Assembly: GCA_964400475.1 (NCBI GenBank)
Contig: CAYNTH010000001.1
Coordinates: 819-64,818, forward strand
DNA: 64,000 nucleotides
Direction: 5' to 3'
Source of the DNA: an uncultured archaeon
GTDB lineage: Archaea; Aenigmatarchaeota; Aenigmatarchaeia; CG10238-14; SCSR01
Under the pieces are notes generated by a model. It was not told where the DNA came from. It saw only the letters and a list, made by a program, of their open reading frames with translations, and ran no database searches. Below are positions 8,171-42,363 of the stretch, in pieces. Every line of letters begins with the position of its first letter. The first letter of the stretch is position 1. The position numbers and the translations under genes are program-made.

Positions 8171-8183
8171 TAGAGATTTAAAT

Positions 8184-11736: not shown

Positions 11737-11759
11737 AATTTATTATCAATTAGATTGTT

Positions 11760-12857
11760 ATGTTAATCGATTATAAGCGGGAATTGGATTTAATTTTGGA
11801 TTATTTGCTTAGTGTGATTTCTTATAGAACAAATATCCCGTTAGTTAAGCCAACCAGAATTAATTTCGATATAACCAACAGATGTCCATTGAGATGTGTT
11901 ATGTGCAATATCTGCAGGCGAGATCACAGAGAAAATGACGAATTGGAGTTGTCTGAGTTGGAAAGTATAATAGACCAGGCAGTTGAATGGGGTATAGATA
12001 ATATCTCTTTTGCAGGCGGCGAAACCCTGGTGAGGAAAAATGATGTTTTGGAATTGATAGATTATTGTAGTTCGAAAAATATGACAACATCTCTGATCAC
12101 GAGCGGTACAATATTCGACAAAAAAACATTTGACAAAATTTTTGAATCTGGTTTGGACAAACTTACAATATCACTCGATGGTGCAACAGAGAAAACCCAC
12201 GATTATATCAGAGGAAAGGGTGCGTTTGAGAAGGCTATGCGAACTGCAAAATATTTCTCAAATAATAGAAACGGCAAGAAAAACCTTGAATTAGAGTTCG
12301 CAACATGTGTCATGTCTTATAATTATATGGAATTGCTAGACATTTATGAACTCATGAAAGAGGTTGGTTTTGATTTTGTAAATTATCAAGCTGTTGTTCC
12401 AGACAACAATTATTCGAATTTTAATAAGTCTGTGTATGATGTAGATTTTTGGTTAGATAGTGGCGAATCAAATAATCTGAGATCGATAGTTAACAAATTG
12501 ATAAAATTAAAGGAGGAAGAAGGTAAAATACGGAATAGCAAATACTATCTTAAAAAGATGCCTGATTACTTTATATTAAAAAACGAATTCAACCCCGGGA
12601 GATGTATGGCAGGATATAGGGTGATTAACATAGACCCGTATGGTAATATCAATATCTGCGGCCTTGGCCCTAATCTGAATGTGAGGGATGCGCCATTGAG
12701 GGAGTTATGGACACATGATGAATTCAAGAAGACCAGGATAAAGATAAAAGACTGCAAGGTTCCATGCATGATGTTGTGTTACGAAAAATTGGTTTTTATG
12801 GACCTATATAACAGTTGGATTGACAAAAGGATAGGTGAAGAATTACATGATGAATGA
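11760..12857 (+). CDS. Radical SAM enzyme, array paralog 2 (subfamily A tail)
   Basis: DITNRCPLRCVMCN, FAGGETL, SLDGATEKTHDYIRGKGAFEKA. Tail: GRCMAGYRVINIDPYGNINICGLGP...DCKVPCMMLCY. Confidence 0.9.
   Translation: MLIDYKRELDLILDYLLSVISYRTNIPLVKPTRINFDITNRCPLRCVMCNICRRDHRENDELELSELESIIDQAVEWGIDNISFAGGETLVRKNDVLELIDYCSSKNMTTSLITSGTIFDKKTFDKIFESGLDKLTISLDGATEKTHDYIRGKGAFEKAMRTAKYFSNNRNGKKNLELEFATCVMSYNYMELLDIYELMKEVGFDFVNYQAVVPDNNYSNFNKSVYDVDFWLDSGESNNLRSIVNKLIKLKEEEGKIRNSKYYLKKMPDYFILKNEFNPGRCMAGYRVINIDPYGNINICGLGPNLNVRDAPLRELWTHDEFKKTRIKIKDCKVPCMMLCYEKLVFMDLYNSWIDKRIGEELHDE
12657..12783. repeat. 127-bp perfect identity tract shared by paralogs 2 and 3 (partner 13750-13876)
   Basis: Base-by-base comparison by eye: tgcggccttggccctaatctgaat...gatgttgtgttacg is identical in both genes and lies in frame in both. 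Confidence 0.9.
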
Positions 12858-13920
12858 TATTCATAAAAAATTTGATTATGTTAAGAGATATCTCGGTTAT
12901 TTGTTATCACATGAATTTAATTATCCATTATCCCATCCTAAGGAATTAAATTTTCAGGTTACCAACAGGTGTCCGTTGAATTGTATAATGTGCAACATAT
13001 CTAAATTGTCCCCATCATCTAACGAGATGACATATGAAGAAATGAGAGATGTTATAGATCAGGTAGTTGATTGGGGAGTGGAATATATTTCTTTCGTTGG
13101 AGGAGAGGCCTTAGTTAGAAAAAATGATACTTTAAGATTGATAAAATATTCAAACGAGAGAGGATTTCATACAACTTTAATATCTTCTGGTTATTTTCTC
13201 GATAGGAAAGTTTGTAAAGAGTTGATAGACAACGGTTTAAACAGGTTAACGATATCACTCGATGGTGCAACAGAGAAAACCCACGATTATATCAGAGGAA
13301 AGGGTGCGTTTGAGAAGGCTATTAGCAGCATGGGGAAACTTGTCGAATTGAGAGGTAAAGTGTCAAATTGTGACTTGGCACTCGATTTTTCCACAGTCAT
13401 TATGTCTCATAATTTTAGGGAGTTAGTGGACATATATAGATTGGCTAAGAACATCGGAGTCGACCGTATATTCTATCAAGCCGTTGTTTTAGATAATACT
13501 TATGAATCTGGTCCGTCTGGATATAATGGATGTGATTTCTGGATAAACGAAGACGATATGAATGAATTTGAAAACGTTGTTGATAAATTAATAAAAATTA
13601 AAGAAAATGATAGCGATTTCTTGTTTAATTCACGCACATATTTGGAATTATTACCGGATTATTTCAGGCTGAAAAACGAATTCAACCCTGGGAGATGTTT
13701 GGCCGGATATATGAATTTGAATATAGACCCCTACGGCAACATCAGTGTGTGCGGCCTTGGCCCTAATCTGAATGTGAGGGATGCGCCATTGAGGGAGTTA
13801 TGGACACATGATGAATTCAAGAAGACCAGGATAAAGATAAAAGACTGCAAGGTTCCATGCATGATGTTGTGTTACGGTAAATTTGAACCCAAAGAGATGA
13901 TTAAGCATTTATTAGATTGA
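12835..13920 (+). CDS. Radical SAM enzyme, array paralog 3 (subfamily A tail)
   Basis: QVTNRCPLNCIMCN, FVGGEAL, SLDGATEKTHDYIRGKGAFEKA. Tail: GRCLAGYMNLNIDPYGNISVCGLGP...DCKVPCMMLCY. Overlaps paralog 2 by 23 nt. Confidence 0.9.
   Translation: MKNYMMNDIHKKFDYVKRYLGYLLSHEFNYPLSHPKELNFQVTNRCPLNCIMCNISKLSPSSNEMTYEEMRDVIDQVVDWGVEYISFVGGEALVRKNDTLRLIKYSNERGFHTTLISSGYFLDRKVCKELIDNGLNRLTISLDGATEKTHDYIRGKGAFEKAISSMGKLVELRGKVSNCDLALDFSTVIMSHNFRELVDIYRLAKNIGVDRIFYQAVVLDNTYESGPSGYNGCDFWINEDDMNEFENVVDKLIKIKENDSDFLFNSRTYLELLPDYFRLKNEFNPGRCLAGYMNLNIDPYGNISVCGLGPNLNVRDAPLRELWTHDEFKKTRIKIKDCKVPCMMLCYGKFEPKEMIKHLLD
13750..13876. repeat. 127-bp perfect identity tract (partner 12657-12783)
   Basis: See the partner entry. 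A second perfect 71-bp tract links 12168-12238 with 13252-13322, and the sequence between the two tracts is strongly diverged. Confidence 0.9.
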
Positions 13921-13924
13921 TAAT

Positions 13925-14959
13925 ATGATTGATGATAGATTCGACAAAGTTTGCAAAGCAATCAACAGTGGGTGTAAAGTTGGCCCTGAGAAAGTTATGA
14001 TATCCCCTACCGATTATTGTAATTTAAATTGTGGTATTTGCTGGAGAAATGAAAAAGAAGAAAAATATGATGAACTCACCCTGGATGAAATAAAATCAAT
14101 ATTGGAAGAATGTAAAGAGATGGGTGTTAGGATCATAGATTTTACTGGAGGAGGGGAACCGTTTATCAGGCATGATATATTCGATATAATGAAAATGATT
14201 AAAGATTTTGGTTTTTTCGGTACACTTACAACTAATGGAACATTATTGGATAAGGATAAGATTATGAAAATTGTCGATATTGGCCTGGATGATATATGTT
14301 TTTCACTGGACGGGCATACCGCTGCGATAAATGATTCTATACGGGGCAATGGTGTTTATTCAGATGTTATAAAATCGATTAGATTATTGAAATCCATGAA
14401 GAATGATTGTAGTTCGGATTTGCCTGTAATTAGAATAGGTACTGTCATCACCTCTAAAAATTTCAAACACCTAGACGATATTGTAGAATTGGCCCATGAG
14501 TTAGACATAAATGCCATAAATTTTTCTGTTTTGATTGAATGGGAGTCGAATAGGAGTTTTTGGATGAGGGATATCGATGAAGACCATATACATAAAGAAC
14601 TTGCCATGGCCAAGAGAAAATGCGACAAATACAGTATAAATTCTAATATAGAAAGTATTCTGGAGTTTGGGGTTTTTGAACACAAGACGCCTGATTTTTG
14701 TTTTGCCCCATGGGAAATGGTCTTTATTAATGCTAGTGGAGATGTTATGGCATGTTGTACACTTGCCAGTCTTTATGAAAATATTATTGGCAACATCAAA
14801 GAAAGTTCTCTTAGGGATATTTGGTACGGGGAAAGGATGGAAAAATTTAGAAAAATGATTATAGATCACAACTTACCAAAAAATTGTAAAAAATGCATAC
14901 CCGATTTTACAAAACAATACAATAAAAAATATAATAAAATGGTATCGATCAATGGATGA
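13925..14959 (+). CDS. Radical SAM enzyme with SPASM/Twitch-type tail, array paralog 4
   Basis: SPTDYCNLNCGICW, FTGGGEPF, TTNGTL, SLDGHTAAINDSIRG. Tail: FCFAPWEMVFINASGDVMACC...NCKKC. Confidence 0.9.
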   Translation: MIDDRFDKVCKAINSGCKVGPEKVMISPTDYCNLNCGICWRNEKEEKYDELTLDEIKSILEECKEMGVRIIDFTGGGEPFIRHDIFDIMKMIKDFGFFGTLTTNGTLLDKDKIMKIVDIGLDDICFSLDGHTAAINDSIRGNGVYSDVIKSIRLLKSMKNDCSSDLPVIRIGTVITSKNFKHLDDIVELAHELDINAINFSVLIEWESNRSFWMRDIDEDHIHKELAMAKRKCDKYSINSNIESILEFGVFEHKTPDFCFAPWEMVFINASGDVMACCTLASLYENIIGNIKESSLRDIWYGERMEKFRKMIIDHNLPKNCKKCIPDFTKQYNKKYNKMVSING

Positions 14960-16049
14960 AAAAATCAAAAGGTTGTTGAAATGGGCGAATGGTGGTAAAG
15001 CGGGGCCTGTTAGGATAGAATTGCATCCCACAGATAAGTGCAATCTCAATTGTAGGTTCTGTTGGCAGAGTACTGTCGAAAATCCGGATTACAGTAAAGA
15101 ATTGAGCGAGGACAAAATACTTTCGATTATCGATGAAGCAGCTTTGATGGATGTAAGGGAATGGATAATTTCTGGCGGAGGGGAACCGTTTATGCGACGT
15201 GACACTACTATGAAAATTTTGAAAAAGATAAAGAAATATGGGATGTGGGGCCAATTGACCACGAACGGAACCCTTATTCAGGATTCTGATATAGAGATTC
15301 TCGTGAGAATTGGATGGGATCAGATACAATTTAGCATAGATGGACCCAATGCAGATATACATAATTATCTCAGACGGGGGGACGATGCTTTTGAAAAGGC
15401 CATCAATAATGTTGAAAAATTTTCTGCTATGAAGAAAAAATTGGGACTGACTAAGCCTTATATAGGATTTAATATGGTTTTGAACGCAATGAACTATGAT
15501 AAGATACCTGATATGATACGTTTGGCAGATAGTGCAGGGAGCCAATTAGTGTATATAGAACCCATTTATCCAGGGTATTTGAGCAATGAGAGACTGAGTT
15601 TAAATGATGATGAAAAAAAGGAACTTAAATATCATATAAAAGATACCATAAAAATCTCTAAGGAACTCGGAGTCAGTACGAATGCGGATCACTTTTTCCA
15701 GAAGTATCTAATAGATAAGGACAAATTCGATAAAACTATCCTTAATGAAGTATCTGGAACGAATAACACCATGTCGAACGCACCTTGTTATCAGCCATGG
15801 TATTTAATGGGGATAAAAGGATCTGGATTCGCTGGATGTTGCTCTACATTTGAGGAGGGAGAATTCATCCATGAAAAAAGTCTATCAGATGTTTGGTACG
15901 GAGATATTTTCGACAAAGTTAGGGACAGAATGATAGAAAAAAATATACCAGATTATTGTTCTAAATGTAGTGTCGTAGTGATGATGGACAATAAAAAGAT
16001 TCGTGAGAAATTTAAAAAACGAATAAGCAATGCTAATTCAAATAATTGA
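14952..16049 (+). CDS. Radical SAM enzyme with SPASM/Twitch-type tail, array paralog 5
   Basis: HPTDKCNLNCRFCW, ISGGGEPF, TTNGTL, SIDGPNADIHNYLR. Tail: PCYQPWYLMGIKGSGFAGCC...YCSKC. 8-nt overlap with paralog 4. Confidence 0.9.
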   Translation: MDEKIKRLLKWANGGKAGPVRIELHPTDKCNLNCRFCWQSTVENPDYSKELSEDKILSIIDEAALMDVREWIISGGGEPFMRRDTTMKILKKIKKYGMWGQLTTNGTLIQDSDIEILVRIGWDQIQFSIDGPNADIHNYLRRGDDAFEKAINNVEKFSAMKKKLGLTKPYIGFNMVLNAMNYDKIPDMIRLADSAGSQLVYIEPIYPGYLSNERLSLNDDEKKELKYHIKDTIKISKELGVSTNADHFFQKYLIDKDKFDKTILNEVSGTNNTMSNAPCYQPWYLMGIKGSGFAGCCSTFEEGEFIHEKSLSDVWYGDIFDKVRDRMIEKNIPDYCSKCSVVVMMDNKKIREKFKKRISNANSNN

Positions 16050-17215
16050 ATTTATATTTGTTCAATATGGATCTCGATACCATCCGATTAGAACGAAATA
16101 AGAGATTGTTGAAGTGGGAATCCGGTAAGACAGCCCCGCCACTGAGATTGATAGTTTTTCCTACCGCTAAATGTAATCTTCAATGCAGGATGTGTAAAAG
16201 AACACACAATTATCCAAATTCTTATACCGAAAATCTGGAATTAGGTGAAATGCCAATTGATAGATGGATAAAAATAACAAAAGAAGCCATAGAGATGGGT
16301 GTCAAAGATTGGTGGATACCTGGCTCGGGTGAACCTATGATGAGGTCAGATGCGGTGGTCAAAGTAGTGGAAGAGGTTAAATATCATTCAGATGATTCCA
16401 ATATAATGTTAACTACCAATGGCACACTTTTCACACCCCTGATAATAAGGAAATTTGTCAAACTAGGGGTTGATAGAATACAATTCAGCTTGGATTCAGC
16501 TGATCCTAAAATACATGATAGTATTAGAGGTGTTAAAGGTAGTTTCTATAGAACAATAAAAAATATCAGGCTTTTTAACTATTATAAAAAAATTTTTGAT
16601 ACTGACAAGCCCGACATGTATGTCAATTCTGTTATTACAAGAAAAAACTATACGAGTCTAGATAAATTAGCTGAGAAGTCTAAATTTTTAGGATGCAGTA
16701 GGATAAATTTGAATGAAATGATAGTCTATGACAAAGCAACCCCCAAAATAAAGGATTTAGTAATTTTAGATAAATCGAAAATAAAAGGCGAAATTGAAAA
16801 TTTGAAATCGTTTGGAAGCGCTGATAATTTTGATGTTTCAATAAGGATCGATACCGGGCCAGAAAAAAAAGAAATAACAAATGATAGATGTATTGGGAAA
16901 AGGAACAAAAATCAGATTATTGAGCGTAAATTCCTATCCCTCCCCTGTTTTGAGCCGTGGTACAGTATAAGTATAGACCCATACGGTTTCATTTCTCCGT
17001 GTTGCAATTGGGGAAAAGGTAAAGAAGAGTTTTCTATAGTGGGTAAGTCTCTATCAGAAGTATGGTATGGGGAATATATGGAATATTTCAGAGATATGAT
17101 CAGTGAGGGAAGATTAGAAGGACCTTGTAGAGGATGTAATATGAAATTTGTGTCAGATGAGATATCGAAAGAACTTAAGGATTATCAGACTTCAAATAAA
17201 AAAATAAGTATGTAG
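16046..17215 (+). CDS. Radical SAM enzyme with SPASM/Twitch-type tail, array paralog 6
   Basis: FPTAKCNLQCRMCK, IPGSGEPM, TTNGTL, SLDSADPKIHDSIRG. Tail: PCFEPWYSISIDPYGFISPCC...PCRGC. The start may be ATG 16067. Confidence 0.9.
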   Translation: MNLYLFNMDLDTIRLERNKRLLKWESGKTAPPLRLIVFPTAKCNLQCRMCKRTHNYPNSYTENLELGEMPIDRWIKITKEAIEMGVKDWWIPGSGEPMMRSDAVVKVVEEVKYHSDDSNIMLTTNGTLFTPLIIRKFVKLGVDRIQFSLDSADPKIHDSIRGVKGSFYRTIKNIRLFNYYKKIFDTDKPDMYVNSVITRKNYTSLDKLAEKSKFLGCSRINLNEMIVYDKATPKIKDLVILDKSKIKGEIENLKSFGSADNFDVSIRIDTGPEKKEITNDRCIGKRNKNQIIERKFLSLPCFEPWYSISIDPYGFISPCCNWGKGKEEFSIVGKSLSEVWYGEYMEYFRDMISEGRLEGPCRGCNMKFVSDEISKELKDYQTSNKKISM

Positions 17216-18825
17216 TGGGAACAATGGTAAAAGTAAAACTCATTTACGTCCCAAGATATTACAGTGGTGGGAAATTCGGATTCGGATATAGTAGATCACA
17301 CACCTTTACACCACCTTTAGGTATATCTATTTTAACATCATTGTTAAAAAAATTCGATATATATGTGAAACAAGACGATTTAGACGCGAGGATATTTTTT
17401 AATAATCCAGAAACGAGAGAAGATCTTAAAGTATTCGATGATAAAGCGCGTATAGAAGCCTTTTTAGACACAGCATATGATAGTGAGTTAGAGAGAAGAG
17501 CCGAAAAAATGCTTGAAAAAACAGAAATTAAAGGATACGATTTGATTGGTTTATCACTGTGTGGTCAGCATAATTTTTCTGTTATAGGAACGTGCGTGGT
17601 ATTGGCAAAATTGATTAAGGAAAAAACAGGCGCTAAAATTATAGTTGGTGGCGTTGATAAGAATGAATGCATGATAGAATTTTCTAAGTTAGTAGATTTT
17701 GATTATATAGATTTTGTTGTTTCTAGTAAAGGTGAAGAGGCTCTTTTGAATATTTGTCTCGAATTGGAAAATACTGGGGAAGTGGATCTTAAGATGGACA
17801 ATTTGTTTTATGTTGGTATGAAGGATGCTGATAAGAAACCAAAAATAAATATACAACCCTGGAACGATCTTTTAAAGCCAGATTTCGATGGGTTACCTCT
17901 TGATCTTTACCGATATAATCCGTATGAAGAATACGAGGATTTGAATCCATCTTTTGAAACGAATCTAAGAATTTTGATGCTGCCGTACGCGTTCACGTAT
18001 GGATGTCCAAACAATTGTGCATTTTGTTCTGAATATGAAAATAATTTTACTTACAAAAAAATACAGGATGTAATTGAAGACTTGAAATTTTTAAAAGAAA
18101 GGTACAACACGAAATATTTTTTCTTTTTAGTGAATAACATTAACCCATGGTATAATTATGCAGAGGAGCTTGCAGACGAGATAGTAAATCAAGATTTAGA
18201 TATAATGTGGACGGCTTGTGCCAATTTTAGCAATATGGATAAGAATCTACTTCATAAATTTAAGTTGTCTGGGGCTGTACGTTTGATTTATGGATTAGAA
18301 ACGGCCAGCAATAAGTTATTAAAATATGTTTTAAAGGGATTTACCCGTGAGAAGGCACGCAAAATGTTGGAGATTTCTGATAAATTTGGGATATGGAACG
18401 AGATAGAAATGATATCAGGATTACCGTTCGAACGAACCGATGATATAAAGACTAGTAAAGATTTTATCAGTCAAAATAAAGATTATATAAATTCATGCCA
18501 TCTCAATAAATTCATGCTCAAGAAGAGCTTATTCCTTAAATTTCCAGAAAGGTTTGGATTGACCAATACCAGTAGAATATCGCGCCCTTTCTATTTTTAT
18601 AGATTTGATGAAATAAACGGGTTAAAGTGGGCAGAAAAAGTTAAACAAATAGAAGATTCGTATAATGAATTACACACTGTAATAAATAACGAATTTCATT
18701 CAAAGGGATGGAAATATTATAGACCGAGTTCGAATTTCCCATTTTTGCTATATTTCTATGCAGTTATTGGAAATAAAGATGAAGTAGAATCGATTGTTTA
18801 TTCCAACACAGAATTTGGTGTGTGA
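17215..18825 (+). CDS. B12-binding-domain-type (class B-like) radical SAM enzyme
   Basis: N-terminal Rossmann-like region (PPLGISILTSLL..., IGLSLCGQHNFS...AKIIVGG) followed by AFTYGCPNNCAFCSEY (CX3CX2C). 536 aa. Confidence 0.8.
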   Translation: MGTMVKVKLIYVPRYYSGGKFGFGYSRSHTFTPPLGISILTSLLKKFDIYVKQDDLDARIFFNNPETREDLKVFDDKARIEAFLDTAYDSELERRAEKMLEKTEIKGYDLIGLSLCGQHNFSVIGTCVVLAKLIKEKTGAKIIVGGVDKNECMIEFSKLVDFDYIDFVVSSKGEEALLNICLELENTGEVDLKMDNLFYVGMKDADKKPKINIQPWNDLLKPDFDGLPLDLYRYNPYEEYEDLNPSFETNLRILMLPYAFTYGCPNNCAFCSEYENNFTYKKIQDVIEDLKFLKERYNTKYFFFLVNNINPWYNYAEELADEIVNQDLDIMWTACANFSNMDKNLLHKFKLSGAVRLIYGLETASNKLLKYVLKGFTREKARKMLEISDKFGIWNEIEMISGLPFERTDDIKTSKDFISQNKDYINSCHLNKFMLKKSLFLKFPERFGLTNTSRISRPFYFYRFDEINGLKWAEKVKQIEDSYNELHTVINNEFHSKGWKYYRPSSNFPFLLYFYAVIGNKDEVESIVYSNTEFGV

Positions 18826-19901
18826 TTATGACTGAAAAAACAGATAGATTGAAAAAATGGATGAATGGTGGGGAAGCCCCCCCAACAACAATGGAAATTA
18901 ACATAACCAACAGATGTAATTTGAAGTGTTTGTCGTGTTGGCAACGTAGCGGGAATATTAATTATGATGAACTGAGTTCCGAAAAATGGTTGGAGATTGT
19001 AAAAGATGCTGGTGAGATGGGCGTTGAAGAAATTAGAATTCCAGGAAGTGGCGAACCTCTTATAAGAAGCGACTTGGTTTTAGATATAATGGAAGAATCT
19101 AAAAAATATGGAATGAATGGTCTTATTATAACCAATGGGACGTTGTGGACGGATGAATTGGTCGAGAAGGCGATTAATGTCGGGTGGGACAATGTTACTT
19201 TCAGTATAGATGCACCTGATGCCGAGACCCACGACTATCTGAGGGGTATGGACGGTGCATTCGATAAAGCAATGAAATGGTTACGGAAGTTTAAGCATAT
19301 GAAGAGAAAAATGGATGAGACTCTTCCACTTCTGCGATTAAATGTAGTTTTGAGTAATGAGAATTTTGATAAGTTGGATAGAATGATGGAATTTGCCCAC
19401 ATAAATGGTTGCGATTCTCTTTCTCTTCAGCCAATGACGATATTTTCTCCTTTAGGTGAGAGATTAAAGCTAAACGATGAACAAATAAAGGAGTTGCCAG
19501 AGAATATTAAAAGAGCAAAAAGAATTGCAGATAAATATTCAATCTATACAAATGTAGATGATTTTGTTGATTCAGATATCGTTAAAAAAACCAATAAAAT
19601 GGATGAAGTGATAGCTGAAAAAATAGACGATTATAGTAATGAATTCCTATCCCTCCCCTGCTTCGAACCATGGTATAATATCATAATAATGCCTAACGGG
19701 ACAATGGGTCCTTGTAGTATGTTCGGGGGCGAAAAGGGCATAAGTCTGAAAAATAAATCTCTATCAGAAGTATGGTATGGGGAATATTTTACAAATATTC
19801 GGAAAAGATTACTAAATAAAAATCTCTTCGATTTTTGTAAAAATTGTTGTGTTGTTGTTTTTGAAGAAAATAAAAAAATCAGAGGAGAACTTTCAAAATA
19901 G
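18822..19901 (+). CDS. Radical SAM enzyme with SPASM/Twitch-type tail, array paralog 7
   Basis: NITNRCNLKCLSCW, IPGSGEPL, ITNGTL, SIDAPDAETHDYLRGMDGAFDKA. Tail: PCFEPWYNIIIMPNGTMGPC-x40-CKNCC. Confidence 0.9.
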   Translation: MIMTEKTDRLKKWMNGGEAPPTTMEINITNRCNLKCLSCWQRSGNINYDELSSEKWLEIVKDAGEMGVEEIRIPGSGEPLIRSDLVLDIMEESKKYGMNGLIITNGTLWTDELVEKAINVGWDNVTFSIDAPDAETHDYLRGMDGAFDKAMKWLRKFKHMKRKMDETLPLLRLNVVLSNENFDKLDRMMEFAHINGCDSLSLQPMTIFSPLGERLKLNDEQIKELPENIKRAKRIADKYSIYTNVDDFVDSDIVKKTNKMDEVIAEKIDDYSNEFLSLPCFEPWYNIIIMPNGTMGPCSMFGGEKGISLKNKSLSEVWYGEYFTNIRKRLLNKNLFDFCKNCCVVVFEENKKIRGELSK

Positions 19902-19909
19902 GTTATTAC

Positions 19910-21088
19910 ATGGATCGAGGGGACATATATCAAATTAAGATTAATCGCCTATCCGAATGGATGAAAACTGGGAGGGCGGGTCCTGTAAAAATTGACATAG
20001 AACCTACAAATACATGCAATCTCAATTGTAAATTTTGTTGGACTCAGTCTAGGGACAGACTGAACAATTGTCAGTATGATGAAATACTTACTGCTGAGAG
20101 GATACTTTCGATTATCGATGAAGCAGCTGAACTTGGAGTCGTTGAATGGCAGATAGCGGGTGGATGGGAACCAACCGTTAATCGAGATCTTCTAATAGAA
20201 ATGGCCAAACGTATAAAATCGTATGGGATGTATGGGTGTATAACGACCAATGGGACACTTTTCACAGACGAGATGATCGAAACTTTTGTTAGCATAGGCT
20301 GGGATGAAATATTATTTAGTTTAGAGGGAGCTAATCCAGAGACTCACGATTACTTAACCGGTATTAACGGTTCATTCTATAAATCAACGAGTGCAATGGA
20401 AACTTTCAAAAAAGTAAAAGAAAAATACGGTAAATCAACTCCAAATTATAGTTTTCATGCAGTTTTGACTAATAAGAATTATAAGCAACTTGAGGAGATG
20501 ATTCGGTTAGGTAAAAAGATTGGATGTACTGGGGTAAATTTTGAGCCATTGACTGTTTGGTCGGATATTGGTAAGAACTTGAAGCTAAATGAGAATGAAA
20601 TGGAAGATGTTAAGAAATACGCCAGGGATGCAATAAAAACTGCAAAAAAATTGGGAATCCATACAACTGCAGAAAATTTATTGGACACAAAACTGGTTAA
20701 AAAGGATCACATGGATGAAATTCTGATAAACGAGTTTTCGAATATGAAAAAGGACAAGGATTCTGATTCAATTTTGAATTCACCATGTTTCGAACCTTGG
20801 CTGAGTTTAGAGATTAGAGTTAACGGGAGGGTCGCTCCTTGTAGGATATGTGATTTCGATTCTAACTGCGAAACAGTTCAAAATAAATCCTTGAAGGATG
20901 TATGGGAAGGCGAATATTTTCAAAATTTGAGGAAAAAAATGGTGAGTGGACACATGCCGAAATTCTGTACTGATTGTGCAGCGGGTAATGTTGTGACTAA
21001 TTTGAAAATGAAGCGTGATATAATAGAGAATAATAAGGTGTTTTCTATCAGTAAGATTAAAAATATGGTGAGAGCTTTTTATGGATAA
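19910..21088 (+). CDS. Radical SAM enzyme with SPASM/Twitch-type tail, array paralog 8
   Basis: EPTNTCNLNCKFCW, IAGGWEPT, TTNGTL, SLEGANPETHDYLTG. Tail: PCFEPWLSLEIRVNGRVAPC...FCTDC. Confidence 0.9.
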   Translation: MDRGDIYQIKINRLSEWMKTGRAGPVKIDIEPTNTCNLNCKFCWTQSRDRLNNCQYDEILTAERILSIIDEAAELGVVEWQIAGGWEPTVNRDLLIEMAKRIKSYGMYGCITTNGTLFTDEMIETFVSIGWDEILFSLEGANPETHDYLTGINGSFYKSTSAMETFKKVKEKYGKSTPNYSFHAVLTNKNYKQLEEMIRLGKKIGCTGVNFEPLTVWSDIGKNLKLNENEMEDVKKYARDAIKTAKKLGIHTTAENLLDTKLVKKDHMDEILINEFSNMKKDKDSDSILNSPCFEPWLSLEIRVNGRVAPCRICDFDSNCETVQNKSLKDVWEGEYFQNLRKKMVSGHMPKFCTDCAAGNVVTNLKMKRDIIENNKVFSISKIKNMVRAFYG

Positions 21089-22232
21089 TCATGAACTTGA
21101 AAAATGTGAGAGGATAATTACCCAGCTAAATGGCAATTCCGCACCGCCATTTAAAATAGATTTAGAACTACACCGAAGATGTAATTTGAATTGTTTAAGT
21201 TGTTCCAGACGCTCGGCCCAAAATTATGGTAGTATAAATGAATATTCAGAAAAGGTCGAAATGTCAACGGAAAGATGGTTGGATATAGTTGATGAAGCTG
21301 GTAAGATTGGTGTAAAGGAATGGCATATAGCTGGTGGAGGGGAGCCAATGTTTCTCCCAGACAGAGCAATTCCCATCATGGATATGATTAAAAAATATGC
21401 GATGTATGGGATAATAACCACAAATGGGACCTTATGGGACGAAGAAAAGATTGAGAAATTGGTTAAAATCGGGTGGGATAGGATACATTTCAGCATAGAT
21501 GCACCTGATGCCGAGACCCACGACTATCTGAGGGGTATGGACGGTGCATTCGATAAAGCCGTTAATACCATAAAAGTTTTCAATAAATTCAAGAAAAAAT
21601 ATAATTCCGAAAAACCTATGATGAATACTAATACTGTTTTATCAGTTGAAAATTACAAAAAAATGCCGGAAATGGTGGAATTTGTTCATAGTATTGGTAT
21701 TGAGTATATGTTCATTGAACCATTGATTGTTTATTCTGACTTGGGCAGGGAACTCAAATTAAATAAATCCCATATAGCTGAGTTTTCTGTGTATTTAGAG
21801 CGCGCCAAAAAATTAGCCGATAAATATGGATTGTCAAATAATTTTTCTGGCATTGACCAAAATTTGACCAAAGATCTTATTGATAAGAGCAGTAGAATGG
21901 ATGAGGTTGTTGAGGAAGATACTAAAGAGGCACTTAATTTAGACACCGATAACGATTTTTTGAAAAAAATCTTGTCAATTCCTTGTTATAAGCCATGGTG
22001 GCATATGACAATTAAATGCGATGGTAGAGTAACTTCTTGTGATGTTCCGATTAAAGGCGGTGATAATCTCACTGATAAAAGTTTGAAGGATGTATGGGAA
22101 GGCGAATATTTTCAAAATTTGAGGAACGGATTGTTGAAAAGTAATATACCTGAATTTTGTGGCCAATGCAATCCGAGTCATACTACTCAAAGGCGTAGAA
22201 TGAGAAAAGATATTATGGATATCTTGAGTTGA
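21081..22232 (+). CDS. Radical SAM enzyme with SPASM/Twitch-type tail, array paralog 9 (ELHRRCNL subfamily)
   Basis: ELHRRCNLNCLSCS, IAGGGEPM, TTNGTL, SIDAPDAETHDYLRGMDGAFDKA. Tail: PCYKPWWHMTIKCDGRVTSC...FCGQC. Confidence 0.9.
   Translation: MDNHELEKCERIITQLNGNSAPPFKIDLELHRRCNLNCLSCSRRSAQNYGSINEYSEKVEMSTERWLDIVDEAGKIGVKEWHIAGGGEPMFLPDRAIPIMDMIKKYAMYGIITTNGTLWDEEKIEKLVKIGWDRIHFSIDAPDAETHDYLRGMDGAFDKAVNTIKVFNKFKKKYNSEKPMMNTNTVLSVENYKKMPEMVEFVHSIGIEYMFIEPLIVYSDLGRELKLNKSHIAEFSVYLERAKKLADKYGLSNNFSGIDQNLTKDLIDKSSRMDEVVEEDTKEALNLDTDNDFLKKILSIPCYKPWWHMTIKCDGRVTSCDVPIKGGDNLTDKSLKDVWEGEYFQNLRNGLLKSNIPEFCGQCNPSHTTQRRRMRKDIMDILS
21401..21559. repeat. 159-bp perfect identity tract shared by paralogs 9 and 11 (partner 24185-24343); its 3' 65 bp also occur in paralog 7 (19206-19270)
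   Basis: gatgtatgggataataaccacaaatggg...ggacggtgcattcgataaagc was checked by eye and is identical. It encodes MYGIITTNGTLWDEEKIEKLVKIGWDRIHFSIDAPDAETHDYLRGMDGAFDKA. Confidence 0.9.
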
Positions 22233-22271
22233 TGTAAGATAAAATCTAATTTATAAATATTCCAGAGATAG

Positions 22272-23462
22272 TTGAATTTAATCAGGGGTAATGAAATGGA
22301 TTTATACGATGAACGTGTCAGTAGACTTGTTAAATGGGCGAATGGTGGTAAAGCGGGGCCTGTAAGCATAGAATTAGTACCTACGGATAAGTGTAATCTT
22401 AATTGTTTAAGTTGTTGGAGGCAGGGATGGAACAAAGAAAAACTTGAAAAGAGATATTCGAAAGAAATGTCTGATGAGAGGCTCCTTAAACTTATTGATG
22501 AAGCTGCTGATTTAGATGTTAAAGAGATAGCATTTGTTGGAGGAGGGGAACCATTTTGCAGGGATATTACTCCTGAATTAATTAAGAAAATTAAGAAATA
22601 TGGGATGGAATGTGATATTGTTACGAATGGTGCACTCCTTGATAAAGAATTAATAGATATGATGATTAGAATCGGAGTTGACCGAATAAAGTTCAGTGTA
22701 GATGGTGTAAATTCAGAAACCCACGATTATCTCAGAGGTGTTGATGGAACTTTCAATAAAGTAATTGAAAATATAAAACATTTTTCCCTTCTTAAAGAAG
22801 AATTGGGCGCAGAAAGACCAAGATTGTTATTTAATACTGTTATATCTAGCAGAAATTATGAGCAACTTCCCGATATTGTTAAAATGGGTAATGACATAGG
22901 GTTAAACGGTATATGGCTTTTACCTTTGACGGTTTTCGATGATTCTGCTAAAAATCTTAAATTAACACATGAACAAACTTTGGAATTCAAAACAATTCTG
23001 GATAGGTCCATTAAGCTGTCTAAAGAATTTGGCATGAATAATAATTTTGAAAATTTTGTTGACACGAAATATATGGAAAAAACAGAAAGCATGGACGAAG
23101 TGATGATGGAAGAAGCCCCCAAAGGTAATAACTTAGATGATATTATATCAAATGAATATCCGAAGTCAAGAAACCCGTTGAAAAATTTTCAACTCTTACC
23201 TTGTTATATTCCCTGGCATCATATAACTATTATTCCAAATGGTAATATAGCACCGTGTTTCAGTCCCTGGGTTTGGGATACGAAAACGTCTATTAAAGAT
23301 AATTCTTTGGAAGAACTTTGGTATGGGGGATATTTTGATAAATTTAGGGACATTATGTTAAGTAGAAAATTACCAGATAATTGTAAGAGATGTTGTGTTT
23401 GGGAAGTGTTCAATAATAAAAAAATTAGAAAAGGTATAAAAAAATTTATGAAATCTGGATGA
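22272..23462 (+). CDS. Radical SAM enzyme with SPASM/Twitch-type tail, array paralog 10
   Basis: VPTDKCNLNCLSCW, FVGGGEPF, VTNGAL, SVDGVNSETHDYLRG. Tail: PCYIPWHHITIIPNGNIAPC...NCKRCC. The start may be ATG 22296. Confidence 0.9.
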   Translation: MNLIRGNEMDLYDERVSRLVKWANGGKAGPVSIELVPTDKCNLNCLSCWRQGWNKEKLEKRYSKEMSDERLLKLIDEAADLDVKEIAFVGGGEPFCRDITPELIKKIKKYGMECDIVTNGALLDKELIDMMIRIGVDRIKFSVDGVNSETHDYLRGVDGTFNKVIENIKHFSLLKEELGAERPRLLFNTVISSRNYEQLPDIVKMGNDIGLNGIWLLPLTVFDDSAKNLKLTHEQTLEFKTILDRSIKLSKEFGMNNNFENFVDTKYMEKTESMDEVMMEEAPKGNNLDDIISNEYPKSRNPLKNFQLLPCYIPWHHITIIPNGNIAPCFSPWVWDTKTSIKDNSLEELWYGGYFDKFRDIMLSRKLPDNCKRCCVWEVFNNKKIRKGIKKFMKSG

Positions 23463-23484
23463 ATTTTAGGAGTTGATAAATAAT

Positions 23485-23829
23485 ATGGATGATAATATTA
23501 CAAAAGAAGTTTTAGAAGAATTTGAAAATAACTTTAAACAAGAGACCGAGGAGAATTCCATTAAAGATCCAATGATAGATGAAAATCCATTAACGCACAA
23601 TGAAAACGACGATCAAACAGAAGATTTAGGTAACAAATACAGGAAAGTTATTGAGGAAAATGAATTGTTAAAAATACAGCTTAAATCCAGGCAAAAAGAA
23701 ATTGATGATTTAAGAGCTGAATTAGACGATATTCACAATTCAATTAGTTATAGATTGGGTAGAAGATTTGCTGAAACTAGTTTGGGTGGAATTATTAAGA
23801 AGATTCTTCATAAGTATTTTTTTAGATAG
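23485..23829 (+). CDS. Small acidic coiled-coil protein with an NSISYRLG tail motif
   Basis: Acidic N-terminus, then the heptad-like ENELLKIQLKSRQKEIDDLRAELDDIH, then NSISYRLGRRFAETSLGGIIKKI. No Cys. The track start is TTG 23473. Confidence 0.55.
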   Translation: MDDNITKEVLEEFENNFKQETEENSIKDPMIDENPLTHNENDDQTEDLGNKYRKVIEENELLKIQLKSRQKEIDDLRAELDDIHNSISYRLGRRFAETSLGGIIKKILHKYFFR

Positions 23830-23843
23830 TTTTGTTTTAGAAG

Positions 23844-25016
23844 TTGGTATGTTTGAGAGATTTTAGTAAGGAAGAGATGATCAATAAAGAAAGGATACGT
23901 CGTTTAGTTAATTGGTATTATGGTAAGAATGAGGGGCCTATACACATTGATGCCGAACTACACAAAAGATGTAATCTCAGTTGTCGTTTTTGTCCGAGGA
24001 GCGCATCTGATTATGATTTGAATTTAGAATCTAAAACCAAGGAGTTACCAGTTGAGCGATGGATTGGTATTGTTGAAGAAGCTGCCGATTTGGGTGTCAT
24101 GGTTTTCAATTTGGAAGGAGCAAATGAACCAATATTTGTTCCAGAATTAGCCTTTCCCGTTATAGAGAAGATAAAAGATTTGGAGATGTATGGGATAATA
24201 ACCACAAATGGGACCTTATGGGACGAAGAAAAGATTGAGAAATTGGTTAAAATCGGGTGGGATAGGATACATTTCAGCATAGATGCACCTGATGCCGAGA
24301 CCCACGACTATCTGAGGGGTATGGACGGTGCATTCGATAAAGCGATAAAAAATATCAGAATTTTGAATAAATATAAGGAACGTGAAGGTTCTGATTTTCC
24401 GATGTTGAATATGAATATAATGATTTGTAATAAAAATTTCCGGAAACTTCCAGATATGGTCGAATTGGCTAATAAGTTAAATGTGGATTATATTTTTGTT
24501 GAACCTTTAATGATATTTTCTGAAATAGGTAGGGAACTTAAGATAAATAATAATCATGTTGAGAATACTTTGCCAGAATATATAAGAACTGCTAAAAATT
24601 TAGCAGAAAAATACTTCATTGATAATAATTTTTCAACTCAGGACAAAAATCTTGATGAGGATTTAGTTACAGAAGTCGATAAGAAGAAAGTCCTTATAAG
24701 TGATGTTAAACGCTTTAGTAATGATGGTTTATTATCTTCTCCTTGTTTCAAACCTTGGTCCAGAATTGCTATAAAATATGACGGATTAATAGGGCATTGT
24801 GGTTTGATTCAAGACGGTGAAAATATTATGGAAAAAAGTTTGAAGGAGTTTTGGTATGGTCAATGGTTAAATGATATAAGAAAAAAAATGAAAAATGGTC
24901 AATTATTAAAGCATTGTTCCAATTGCATACCAAGCGATATAACTCAGAGAAGACGGTTTAGAAAGAAAATCATTGAATCCCTGAGATCTGATAAAATAGA
25001 TTCTAAGCAAATTTAG
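23844..25016 (+). CDS. Radical SAM enzyme with SPASM/Twitch-type tail, array paralog 11 (ELHKRCNL subfamily, degenerate GGEP)
   Basis: ELHKRCNLSCRFCP; the GGEP position reads LEGANEPI; TTNGTL; SIDAPDAETHDYLRGMDGAFDKA. Tail: PCFKPWSRIAIKYDGLIGHC...HCSNC. Confidence 0.85.
   Translation: MVCLRDFSKEEMINKERIRRLVNWYYGKNEGPIHIDAELHKRCNLSCRFCPRSASDYDLNLESKTKELPVERWIGIVEEAADLGVMVFNLEGANEPIFVPELAFPVIEKIKDLEMYGIITTNGTLWDEEKIEKLVKIGWDRIHFSIDAPDAETHDYLRGMDGAFDKAIKNIRILNKYKEREGSDFPMLNMNIMICNKNFRKLPDMVELANKLNVDYIFVEPLMIFSEIGRELKINNNHVENTLPEYIRTAKNLAEKYFIDNNFSTQDKNLDEDLVTEVDKKKVLISDVKRFSNDGLLSSPCFKPWSRIAIKYDGLIGHCGLIQDGENIMEKSLKEFWYGQWLNDIRKKMKNGQLLKHCSNCIPSDITQRRRFRKKIIESLRSDKIDSKQI
24185..24343. repeat. 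159-bp perfect identity tract (partner 21401-21559)
   Basis: See the partner entry. Confidence 0.9.
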
Positions 25017-25024
25017 GTGTTTAT

Positions 25025-26164
25025 ATGAATAAATACGAATTAACGAAAAAATTTGGAAAAATGGGTCATATATATCATAGTTTAATGCAATGGAATAAGA
25101 ACAACAACGGATACCCGACTCAGGCGCAGATTCATTTAACAAATTTTTGTAATTTAAAATGCTTTTTCTGCCCGACCAGAACTCTTTTAGGTGGTAATTT
25201 AAAAAAAGAAGACGAATTAACGACGAATCAGTGGTTATCTATAATTGATGAAGCAAATGAAATGGGTGTTGATGAATGGCACATATGTGGAGGAGGGGAG
25301 CCACTTTTTTTTAAGGATAGATTTTCGGCTGTTATAGAGAAAATAAAAAAATCTGGAAAAAGGGGAGAATTAATTACTAATGGTGTTTTATTCGATAATC
25401 GACTTATTGAAAAAATGGTCGAACTTAGTTGGGATAAAATAACCTTCAGTTTAGATTCTCCTTTATCGGAAATACAAAACGAATTGAGAGGTAAAGACTG
25501 TTTTGAAGATATTGTGAAAAATATCAAGTATTTTTCTAAAGTTAAGAAGGCGAGAGAAACGAATTATCCAGTATTATGCATACATTCAGTAATATGTAAT
25601 AAAAATTATAAACAGATTACTGAATTAATCGAATTAGCAAAAGAGATAGGAGTAGATGAAGTTCTGTTAAATGCACTGAATATATGGTCATCTGAAATAG
25701 AAAAACTTAAATTGACTGATGATCAGGAAAAAGAATTGATACCGATATTGGATAATGCTCGTAGACTGGCTGATGATTTAGATATAAGTACAAATATAGA
25801 GGAGTTCTTGAAATCAGAACTATTCAAAAAGGCAAATATCATGGATAAGGTAATGAAAAATGAAACCAAAAATCAAAATGACAGTAGCACGGACAACATT
25901 CTCAACGTCCCATGTTATTATCCGTGGTATAATCTTTCAATTTTTCCAGACGGTACAGTTCAGCCCTGTTTTATTCCTCAAGGGACGGGTGAACAGATTA
26001 AGGACAAGAAATTAAAAGAAATCTGGTTCGGAAGAGTATTCTCAGATTTTCGGAATCAAATGAAAAAAGGTAATGTAAGTAAATATTGTGAGAAGTGCAA
26101 TCCTTGGAACCTGGAGAAAATGTCTGAAATACGTGAAAATCTCAGGAAAGAATTAGACCATTGA
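25025..26164 (+). CDS. Radical SAM enzyme with SPASM/Twitch-type tail, array paralog 12
   Basis: HLTNFCNLKCFFCP, ICGGGEPL, ITNGVL, SLDSPLSEIQNELRG. Tail: PCYYPWYNLSIFPDGTVQPC...YCEKC. Confidence 0.9.
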   Translation: MNKYELTKKFGKMGHIYHSLMQWNKNNNGYPTQAQIHLTNFCNLKCFFCPTRTLLGGNLKKEDELTTNQWLSIIDEANEMGVDEWHICGGGEPLFFKDRFSAVIEKIKKSGKRGELITNGVLFDNRLIEKMVELSWDKITFSLDSPLSEIQNELRGKDCFEDIVKNIKYFSKVKKARETNYPVLCIHSVICNKNYKQITELIELAKEIGVDEVLLNALNIWSSEIEKLKLTDDQEKELIPILDNARRLADDLDISTNIEEFLKSELFKKANIMDKVMKNETKNQNDSSTDNILNVPCYYPWYNLSIFPDGTVQPCFIPQGTGEQIKDKKLKEIWFGRVFSDFRNQMKKGNVSKYCEKCNPWNLEKMSEIRENLRKELDH

Positions 26165-30054: not shown

Positions 30055-30131
30055 TAAAATATCAGTTAATTTTTATAATTAAATAAAATTCGTTTTAAAA
30101 TATATACAGGAGTAATTAAATTATAACATTA
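30055..30131. promoter_or_regulatory. Short divergent promoter region between paralogs 14 and 15
   Basis: A 77-bp AT-rich spacer with TATA-like words (tttttataatt; ttttaaaatatata) about 20-35 nt from each start. Confidence 0.3.
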
Positions 30132-31181: not shown

Positions 31182-31249
31182 TATTTTGATTATATTAAGG
31201 AATATCGTAGAGAACCTTGTTAGTATTTTTTGATAATGGTGTTTGTATA

Positions 31250-35453: not shown

Positions 35454-35456
35454 CTT

Positions 35457-36521: not shown

Positions 36522-36566
36522 AATCTTCTAGAAATTTATTTGTTTATTACAAAAATAAAAGAATGT

Positions 36567-40233: not shown

Positions 40234-40234
40234 T

Positions 40235-42359: not shown

Positions 42360-42363
42360 AAAA

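Follow-up and report, generated by a model that had tools for sequence, protein, structure and literature searches.

Cassette antigenic variation proceeds by gene conversion in Neisseria (pilE/pilS), Borrelia (vlsE), Anaplasma (msp2) and Treponema (tprK), where segments are copied non-reciprocally among many paralogs at loci linked to the cell surface. Non-reciprocal homologous exchange that leaves paralogs more alike than orthologs is also the class of mechanism behind rrn operons, tuf and the 26 prokaryotic gene cases of long-lasting concerted evolution (Wang & Chen 2018, PMC6053082), and in methanogen mtr operons the paralogs mtrA-1 and mtrA-2 undergo gene conversion restricted to a domain (Wang et al. 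2015, PMC4632066). Here we analyzed a 64,000-nt stretch of DNA (the window: contig CAYNTH010000001.1, positions 819 to 64,818 of the forward strand, G+C 32.9%) from the metagenome-assembled genome (MAG) of a DPANN archaeon, Candidatus Aenigmatarchaeota. At least 31 radical SAM/SPASM paralogs lie between 10.7 and 64 kb of the window, 30 of them complete and the 31st cut by the window end, and neighboring paralogs share exact tracts of nucleotide sequence embedded in diverged flanks. These tracts very probably reflect recent, repeated, short-tract intrachromosomal gene conversion among neighbors in an old gene array.

The window array resembles the mtrA case in that it is archaeal, its operon-borne paralogs are old, only part of the gene is homogenized and the process recurs in separate lineages. 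It differs in having at least 31 paralogs rather than two, and many short tracts of 30–160 nt, mostly lineage-specific and recent, rather than a whole domain whose homogeneity is maintained for very long periods; the roles of donor and acceptor shift, and flank identity is only ~50%. The copies of rrn, tuf and the other long-lasting cases are near-identical over their full length, whereas the 30 complete window paralogs are 29–55% identical in pairwise amino acid comparisons and conversion is limited to islands of motif blocks. Unlike the cassette systems, the window lacks an expression site and silent, truncated donors; segments move in both directions, they are the conserved and not the variable ones, and the genes encode enzymes and not surface antigens. 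The class of mechanism is already known; the interest, which is moderate, lies in the setting, with low homology, a DPANN host and an undescribed array. A literature search on radical-SAM arrays in Aenigmarchaeota or DPANN found nothing relevant.

Exact tracts within old paralogs

Twelve of the paralogs (r1–r12) form a plus-strand block, identified from open reading frames (ORFs), Pfam matches, the Cx3Cx2C motif and synteny:

10690..26164, plus strand: r1-r12, radical SAM/SPASM block of 12
10690-11736, plus strand: r1
11760-12857, plus strand: r2
12835-13920, plus strand: r3
13925-14959, plus strand: r4
14952-16049, plus strand: r5
16046-17215, plus strand: r6
17215-18825: B12-type radical SAM gene that interrupts the block
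18822-19901, plus strand: r7
19910-21088, plus strand: r8
21081-22232, plus strand: r9
22272-23462, plus strand: r10
23473-23829, plus strand: coiled-coil ORF of 118 aa that interrupts the block
23844-25016, plus strand: r11
25025-26164, plus strand: r12

The exact tracts shared between genes of this block are:

12168..12238, plus strand: 71-nt tract in r2, identical to 13252-13322 (r3); encodes SLDGATEKTHDYIRGKGAFEKA; putative acceptor copy
12657..12783, plus strand: 127-nt tract in r2, identical to 13750-13876 (r3); encodes GLGPNLNVRDAPLRELWTHDEFKKTRIKIKDCKVPCMMLCY; putative donor copy
13252..13322, plus strand: 71-nt tract in r3, mid-gene; putative donor copy
13750..13876, plus strand: 127-nt tract in r3; putative acceptor copy
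14979..15010, plus strand: 32-nt tract in r5, identical to 22332-22363 (r10); N-terminal KWANGGKAGPV
15117..15143, plus strand: 27-nt tract in r5, identical to 20102-20128 (r8); borderline
17048..17077, plus strand: 30-nt tract in r6, identical to 19758-19787 (r7); in the SPASM-block hot spot described below
19206..19270, plus strand: 65-nt tract in r7, identical to 21495-21559 (r9) and 24279-24343 (r11); encodes IDAPDAETHDYLRGMDGAFDKA
19758..19787, plus strand: 30-nt tract in r7, partner of the r6 tract
20891..20934, plus strand: 44-nt tract in r8, identical to 22083-22126 (r9); SPASM domain; encodes KDVWEGEYFQNLR
21401..21559, plus strand: 159-nt tract in r9 (residues 107-160, within the Radical_SAM domain), identical to 24185-24343 (r11); putative acceptor copy
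22083..22126, plus strand: 44-nt tract in r9 (residues about 335-349, within the SPASM domain)
22332..22363, plus strand: 32-nt tract in r10, partner of the r5 tract
24185..24343, plus strand: 159-nt tract in r11, its final 65 nt common to r7

An earlier note on this DNA had listed five tract pairs in the block, and all five proved exact, with 0 mismatches over 32–159 nt. Only one length changed: the r8/r9 pair, given as ~43 nt, is 44 nt long and reaches one base further to the right. The 65-mer of r7 does recur exactly at 21495 and 24279. A dedicated repeat search gave the same repeat families, and the tracts sit at homologous in-frame positions of the plus-strand ORFs.

We placed the 30 complete window paralogs and 50 genes from four relatives in a codon alignment of 80 sequences. 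Within the window, pairs that are elsewhere 35–55% identical in amino acid sequence contain runs of 20–53 identical codons. An exact run of ≥30 nt occurs in 16 of the 435 within-window pairs and one of ≥40 nt in 13, while in 2,348 paralogous pairs between genomes exact runs reach no more than 22 nt, and in 81 orthologous pairs (60–78% nucleotide identity) no more than 29 nt. In a GENECONV-like column permutation (300 permutations) the global maximum was 26, a value exceeded by 16 pairs, including all of those in the earlier note; the borderline 27-nt tract of r5 and r8 lies just over it. A search for maximal-scoring segments (+1/−3, score ≥26) returned 34 segments from the window and none from the 2,348 paralogous pairs between genomes. 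Mismatches in the 34 segments range from 0 to 8%, indicating tracts of varied age.

Inside the tracts the proportion of synonymous differences (pS, NG86) is 0, with 7–39 synonymous sites per pair. In the flanks pS is 0.64–0.79, and the synonymous divergence (dS) is >1.4 or undefined. Synonymous sites are conserved inside the tracts and saturated outside them, as the earlier note had described, and dS in the tracts does not match dS in the flanks, a match that the note had said would make its claim fail. Selection on the protein, which it had judged unable to produce such a pattern, is indeed insufficient, with runs that exceed the between-genome paralogous (22), orthologous (29) and permutation (26) maxima. 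The tracts are young and the paralogs are old.

Tracts extend past the range of the earlier note, reaching up to 149 nt, across 10.7–63 kb and on both strands. In total, 23 of the 30 paralogs carry at least one tract and 26 gene pairs are involved. An alignment-free scan of the window found 37 direct exact repeats of ≥20 nt, and the longest inverted match is 24 nt. The minus-strand block and the tracts outside r1–r12 are:

34359..43467, minus strand: block of 8 radical SAM/SPASM paralogs, likewise mosaic
34359-35453, minus strand: radical SAM/SPASM gene
35457-36521, minus strand: radical SAM/SPASM gene
36567-37673, minus strand: radical SAM/SPASM gene
37657-39060, minus strand: radical SAM/SPASM gene
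39061-40233, minus strand: radical SAM/SPASM gene
40235-41311, minus strand: radical SAM/SPASM gene
41292-42359, minus strand: radical SAM/SPASM gene
42364-43467, minus strand: radical SAM/SPASM gene
31705..31737, plus strand: 33-nt exact tract, identical to 32786-32818; adjacent aldo-keto-reductase/4Fe-4S paralogs 31217-32338 and 32343-33965 (42% amino acid identity)
36060..36119, minus strand: 60-nt tract, identical to 37212-37271 and 41910-41969; third paralog with the mid-gene block
36654..36735, minus strand: 82-nt tract, identical to 42454-42535; SPASM block, NIKNKTFSEIWYGKEFNEFRRRIMDRD
37198..37346, minus strand: 149-nt tract, identical to 41896-42044; encodes NGTLWTDELIEKTVDMGWDNIMFSIDGPDAETHDYLRGVDGAFDKAIEN
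41405..41465, minus strand: 61-nt tract, identical to 36674-36734 and 42474-42534
41896..42044, minus strand: 149-nt tract, partner of 37198-37346
42454..42535, minus strand: 82-nt tract, partner of 36654-36735
50036..50090, plus strand: 55-nt tract, identical to 52231-52285; paralogs 49109-50215 and 51304-52407; SPASM block
50189..50253, plus strand: 65-nt repeat, identical to 51309-51373; N-terminal region of adjacent paralogs 50193-51269 and 51304-52407
60008..60078, plus strand: 71-nt tract, identical to 61414-61484; adjacent Zn-ribbon radical SAM paralogs 59924-61309 and 61345-62712
60173-60204, plus strand: 32-nt tract, identical to 61579-61610; same Zn-ribbon paralogs

Since the aldo-keto reductase pair also carries a tract, the process extends beyond the radical-SAM family. 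The Zn-ribbon subfamily consists of the last three radical SAM genes on the plus strand (59924-61309, 61345-62712 and a third cut by the window end), which have an N-terminal HMPTM-type zinc ribbon (PF23545); its tracts measure 71, 32 and 22 nt. A 39-nt repeat (58994-59032 = 63080-63118) joins gene 58599-59861 to the gene cut by the window end.

Donors, acceptors and independent assemblies

Syntenic loci were found in four other lineages (L001; L002, the same as L003; L004, the same as L005; and L006, nearly the same as L007). Their gene order is an ABC ATPase, an unknown gene, GT2, 8–10 radical-SAM genes, a small ORF and further radical-SAM genes. Each of r1–r5 and r7–r12 has one clear ortholog in L001, L002, L004 and L006, in an order unchanged from that of the window. 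Amino acid identity is 61–72% to the own ortholog (47–62% for the most distant locus) and 32–53% to any other paralog; because each paralog is closer to its own syntenic ortholog, the duplications are older than these species splits. No strain closer than 69% amino acid identity was present in the searched collections.

The flanks of r2, r3, r7, r9 and r11 are 53–70% identical to their own orthologs (63–70% for those of L001, L002 and L006), as compared to 47–56% to other paralogs. Inside the tracts both window copies are identical and resemble the orthologs of one paralog only. For r2 and r3, the sequence outside the tracts is 60–66% identical to the own orthologs (in all loci but the most distant, L004) and 51–56% to the other group. 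Both copies of the mid-gene tract (SLDGATEKTHDYIRGKGAFEKA) are 77% (L001) and 72% (L006) identical to r3 orthologs and 59–65% to r2 orthologs, so that r3 appears to be the donor and r2 the acceptor. The C-terminal 127-nt tract is 65–69% identical to r2 orthologs versus 58–64% to r3 orthologs and carries the r2-type PNLNV, not the r3-type PDIN(V/I), which points to r2 as donor and r3 as acceptor. In the other genomes the same gene pair is 60–86% identical in the tract columns and 52–56% elsewhere. The first 103 nt of the 159-nt tract of r9 and r11 are r11-like (WDEEKIEKLV), and the last 65 nt are common to r7. Window r9 lacks the motif YLRN(L/F/V)PG(Y/T)F, which is present in all four r9 orthologs (4/4); having lost this motif and carrying an r11-type block, r9 is the likely acceptor and r11 the likely donor. 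The ortholog comparisons show transfer that is apparently non-reciprocal, varies in direction between tracts and leaves gene order intact, with each tract a putative lineage-specific replacement of one paralog's sequence by another's.

Selection at the nucleotide level, on a regulatory element or RNA embedded in the genes or through extreme constraint on codons, would fit the coincidence of the tracts with conserved protein motifs, and slow remnants of very recent whole-gene duplications might also be identical in patches. However, the same blocks are 60–86% identical between these paralogs elsewhere and 54–77% identical to orthologs, between-genome orthologs share at most 29 nt, and the tract sequences differ between paralog groups and have no Rfam match. 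As for recent duplication, flank dS is saturated and every paralog has its own syntenic ortholog, hence the duplications are old. Synteny, ortholog identities, run lengths and dS refute both ideas, and we see practically no chance that either is correct.

Logan contigs are independent k=31 assemblies of single runs, here SRR7048220, SRR7048227 and SRR7048218. Contigs built with k=31 must stop k−1 = 30 nt into any true repeat. Five of them (L008, L009, L010, L032 and L033) are 99.8–100% identical to the window. L008 (SRR7048220) equals window 37317–41434 at 100% and ends 30 nt inside the 149-nt tract on one side (at 37317) and the 61-nt tract on the other (at 41434). L010 equals window 13847–15008, a span predicted before the look-up of r4, and ends 30 nt inside the 127-nt tract (at 13847) and the 32-nt tract (at 15008). 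L033 (SRR7048218) begins where the 65-nt sub-tract common to r7, r9 and r11 has its left edge, at 24279, L032 (SRR7048220) starts at 24317 (24346 − 29), and L009 spans 37551–39248. Position 24344, at the right edge of the 159-nt tract, is A in L032 and L033, from two runs, and G in the MAG; the A lengthens the identity of r7 and r11 from 65 to 68 nt, to 24346. At the contig level the three runs have the same mosaics, except for this single-nucleotide polymorphism (SNP) and one structural variant outside the tracts.

Repeats can be created or homogenized by an assembler or during polishing, through chimeric joins or bubble-popping. The window comes from a MAG contig, the length of one tract, 127 nt, is exactly a maximum k in common use, and the interior identity of the two copies rests on contigs, not on read-by-read comparison. 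But sequence that is 50–65% identical cannot be made identical by an assembler, the Logan contigs of three runs stop exactly 30 nt inside the 149-, 61-, 127-, 32- and 68-nt tracts, the end points of L010 were foretold, and comparable tracts occur in MAGs that other groups assembled with SPAdes (NODE_) and MEGAHIT (k141). The breaks at k−1 inside the tracts or at their edges exclude an assembly artefact for practical purposes; we consider one extremely unlikely. The tracts persist in Logan contigs of three runs, whereas their loss on re-assembly was what the earlier note had said would refute it, and its central claim of recent non-reciprocal recombination among diverged paralogs is supported by dS, ortholog incongruence, kept gene order and independent assemblies alike.

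The structural variant is seen in L032, which is 99.9% identical to window 24317–27271; at L032 positions 2956–3192 it is then only ~70% similar for ~190 nt and rejoins the window at 30038–30090. It is a co-occurring strain variant without most of a DUF2079 gene (27295–28881) and of the radical SAM paralog r14 (28945–30054). L006 and L007, of one species from different samples, are identical over 11,323 nt and then differ by 40 SNPs in the last 390 nt of L007. This divergent tail (11324–11700) covers the r10 ortholog, with 16 amino acid changes. Paralog conversion was rejected as its origin; the tail is the orthologous gene of a ~10%-diverged strain, and marks either a strain-level recombination boundary or a contig-end chimera.

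Placement of the tracts and candidate mechanisms

The frequency of tracts falls with the distance between genes: 9/23 pairs at <1.5 kb have a tract, 6/41 at 3–6 kb and 0/118 at >25 kb (Mann-Whitney p = 5e-10). Events occur mostly between genes <6 kb apart. By orientation, tracts were found in 22/235 same-strand pairs and 4/200 opposite-strand pairs.

Two hot spots were identified within the genes. The first lies within the Radical_SAM domain (TNGTLW...S(I/L)DGPDAETHDYLRGxxGAFDKA), with tract coverage up to 13.5x, and the second within the SPASM domain (KSLxxVWxGExFxxxR). Between these domains lies a variable region, alignment columns 900–1350, which is free of tracts. Coverage by tracts rises with nucleotide conservation across the family (rho 0.49, p = 0.002). 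The tract edges are sharp, with identity of 0.43–0.55 at 2–30 nt from the edge. As a proxy for the pre-conversion state we used the same paralog pairs in the relatives, which are 66–69% identical over the tract columns and 43–47% in the 12 nt just outside; given this drop at the tract borders, the tracts fill conserved blocks edge to edge.

A profile of r9 orthologs searched against genome contigs gave 21 loci. Many Aenigmatarchaeota MAGs have arrays with 13–16 members of the family per 21 kb. Neighboring paralogs share exact tracts of ≥30 nt in L018 (89, 65, 59, 53 and 34 nt), L016 (106, 41 and 41 nt), L012 (44 nt), L017 (42 nt), L004 (69 nt) and L001 (32 and 31 nt); L006, L013, L014, L020 and L021 have none of ≥24 nt. 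The tracts of these lineages fall on the same motif blocks as those of the window, as in L018, where three paralogs share FSIDGPNPEINDYLRGKGS. Comparison across lineages shows the same blocks to have been converted, to all appearances independently, in other Aenigmatarchaeota.

We propose that sequence is copied non-reciprocally, at the homologous in-frame position, between neighboring paralogs. Pairing would be seeded in the few blocks where paralogs keep about 66–70% nucleotide identity, namely S(I/L)DGxxxETHDYxRGxxGAFxKA of the radical-SAM barrel and KSLxxVWxGExFxxxR of the SPASM domain, and transfer would halt where similarity drops to about 45%. The net effect would be that generic cofactor-binding modules are partly homogenized while specificity-determining parts diverge further. 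Archaeal RadA-type short-patch recombination (synthesis-dependent strand annealing) would most likely carry out the copying, possibly helped by weak mismatch rejection; with identity so low, this enzymatic route remains inferential. To our knowledge, nothing is known experimentally about recombination in Aenigmatarchaeota. Conversion in short, uncoordinated patches, which accompanies homologous recombination in Sulfolobus acidocaldarius (Mao & Grogan 2012, PMC3367456), would be a plausible enzymology by analogy, although there a crenarchaeon was transformed experimentally with donor DNAs, and the substrates were far less diverged than the window paralogs.

Several observations weigh against conversion by homologous recombination. 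The flanks are ~50% identical with edges that are razor sharp, and the inferred pre-conversion identity of ~66% is far below the usual tolerance of RecA/RadA-type enzymes. The excess of same-strand pairs is confounded with distance. Polarity rests on orthologs only 60–77% identical within the tracts, and transfer is read from comparison of sequences, not from before/after genotypes. The window lineage has the most and the longest tracts compared with its four syntenic relatives, which have the same genes. Lastly, G+C at third codon positions (GC3) is 0.41 in the tracts versus 0.32 ± 0.02 in random same-length segments drawn from the same genes (0/5000 permutations reach it), an enrichment that a plain neutral model does not predict. 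In r2, r3, r9 and r11, GC3 is 0.49–0.54 in the tracts versus 0.34–0.42 in the same columns of the orthologs, and no enrichment was seen in the tracts of other lineages. The enrichment could be due to GC-biased conversion, GC-favored pairing or chance; GC-biased conversion is supported in the window genome and does not extend to the tracts of other lineages.

Perhaps the tracts arise by template switching during replication, in which the nascent strand jumps to a nearby paralog at microhomology, copies 30–160 nt and jumps back at the next conserved block. Such a process would account for the very low flank identity and sharp edges, the match of both tract ends to conserved-block edges, the strong short-range dependence, the near-restriction of events to co-oriented genes, and the tract sizes of 30–160 nt. 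The case for it is drawn from sequence patterns, and the orientation effect is again the one confounded with distance. Some events span 5–15 kb, which is long for an intra-fork switch, and patchy tracts such as that of genes 36567 and 42364, whose exact runs are split by single mismatches, fit heteroduplex repair or ageing equally well. We regard template switching as possible but unlikely, and take RadA-type gene conversion as the working explanation.

DPANN lineages are known hosts of diversity-generating retroelements (DGRs), and the repeat sizes of ~60–160 nt resemble template/variable repeat (TR/VR) pairs. However, no reverse transcriptase domain was found in any window ORF scanned, and most tracts have 0 differences. 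The 62 mismatches in imperfect tracts include all substitution types, with A in the first copy at 23 and in the second at 13, and have no adenine specificity; moreover, the targets are enzyme cores and not C-terminal variable ligand-binding folds. Without a reverse transcriptase or adenine bias, DGR activity is excluded for this window and its probability is negligible.

The earlier note had left open whether recombination here serves concerted evolution or active diversification. A programmed cassette system that shuffles enzyme segments to vary a surface glycan, comparable to pilE/pilS, vlsE or tprK, could be of use to a DPANN episymbiont, for which surface variation is plausibly advantageous. 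The locus includes Wzm/Wzt, GT2, GT4, PMT_2 and DUF2079 genes, paralogs and tracts are many, the tracts more so than in the relatives, and the conversion into r9 replaced a motif common to all four syntenic r9 orthologs. Yet all 30 paralogs are full-length (344–467 aa) and keep Cx3Cx2C, and no architecture of expression site and silent cassettes is present. Flow runs in both directions between r2 and r3, and from r11 to r9; the segments that move are the most conserved blocks, never those in the variable columns 900–1350; and the unrelated aldo-keto reductase pair also has a tract. Contigs of three runs share one mosaic, save one SNP at a tract edge, and no recombinase, reverse transcriptase or other dedicated machinery was found among the window ORFs scanned. 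Programmed diversification therefore seems to us highly improbable. Intact genes, bidirectional transfer, the movement of conserved blocks only and the tract in the aldo-keto reductase pair favor partial concerted evolution, and of the two possibilities in the earlier note active diversification is not favored. We infer that conversion arises as a side effect of general recombination where genes are densely arrayed in tandem, and not from a device dedicated to diversification.

A bolder idea is that an unusually active, homology-poor, short-range copy-paste process swaps catalytic modules of ~50% identical genes and thereby yields functional chimeric tailoring enzymes. We think this doubtful. 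Such copying could proceed by microhomology-anchored template switching, or by RadA recombination with almost no mismatch rejection plus GC bias. If true, module swapping would reshape the ways in which an episymbiont can modify glycans, as a natural 'DNA shuffling' that goes beyond the homogenization of neutral blocks.

Interparalog gene conversion in this array counts as direct evidence, validated in independent assemblies, that intrachromosomal recombination is ongoing in a DPANN archaeon that is uncultivated and genome-reduced. Conversion at ~50% flank and ~66% block identity would stretch the usual homology requirement, and the tracts provide a natural data set on archaeal recombination versus divergence. 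They also give an interchangeability map for radical SAM/SPASM enzymes, useful for chimera design: swaps repeatedly involve the SAM-barrel block and one block of SPASM, never the bridging region. In practical terms, assemblies with short k break at the tracts, trees of paralogs and orthologs are distorted by them, and dating of this family by dS can be misled.

The radical SAM/SPASM family and its locus

From 10.7 kb on, nearly all of the window is taken up by genes of 344–467 aa. All 30 complete paralogs (30/30) have a start codon, full length and the Cx3Cx2C motif, and they are arranged in operon-like blocks. The radical SAM/SPASM paralogs score 62–100 bits to PF04055 (Radical_SAM), for which the Pfam cut-off is 29.5; most paralogs also pass the cut-off of PF13186 (SPASM), with r2, r3 and r5 matching it weakly or not at all. 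The last 40% of each protein contains 3–8 Cys residues. With PF04055, PF13186 and Cx3Cx2C, the window genes are like the radical SAM/SPASM and twitch enzymes anSME, PqqE, SkfB, AhbD, NirJ and the tungsten-cofactor maturase. They differ from these in their context, a Wzm/Wzt glycan-export locus, and in falling below all NCBIfam equivalogs: none of those searched (AhbD, NirJ, PqqE, anSME, W-cofactor maturase, RiPP maturases, the last acting on peptides made by the ribosome and modified after translation) was reached, the best scores being 90–115 bits against cut-offs of 380–650. A PDB sequence search with the paralogs gave remote radical SAM matches only (SkfB, PqqE, BlsE).

The neighbors of the paralogs in the window are a Wzm-like ABC-2 permease, a Wzt/TagH-like ATPase, GT2, GT4 and PMT_2 glycosyltransferases, two DUF2079 membrane proteins, a GDSL esterase, the two aldo-keto reductase/4Fe-4S proteins and B12-binding radical SAM enzymes. 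This gene neighborhood points to a locus for surface-glycan export and tailoring. No tRNA genes or Rfam families were found within the 64-kb window, and no RiPP precursor is recognizable in the locus, where the array has no sizeable intergenic gaps. The array itself, with its 31 or more radical-SAM genes in a Wzm/Wzt locus for glycan export and its conservation across Aenigmatarchaeota, may be a more interesting object than the tracts.

The 118-aa coiled-coil ORF (23473–23829) is syntenic in the four relatives, where it is 69–120 aa long. Its N-terminus is acidic and variable, and the coiled coil is conserved (EENEILKIQLxSRExEIxELRxELDDIHxSISYRVGRWIAET...KYFFK). Judged by these features it is unlike a RiPP precursor and might serve the glycan pathway as a scaffold or as a factor of the chain-length type.

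Array-type contigs were also recovered among sequences filed as Thermodesulfobacteriota, Syntrophomonadaceae and Methanosarcinales (L022, L023, L025, L028, L029 and L031), some with 57–60% G+C, owing either to mis-binning or to true occurrence outside Aenigmatarchaeota.

The window gene at 8157–9770 (537 aa) has no Pfam or NCBIfam match and is the counterpart of the conserved gene upstream of GT2. In one relative this gene contains a direct repeat of 95–127 nt with a spacing of 258 nt (539–633 = 797–891 in L002 and 1–127 = 259–385 in L003), and the L003 contig ends inside its repeat.

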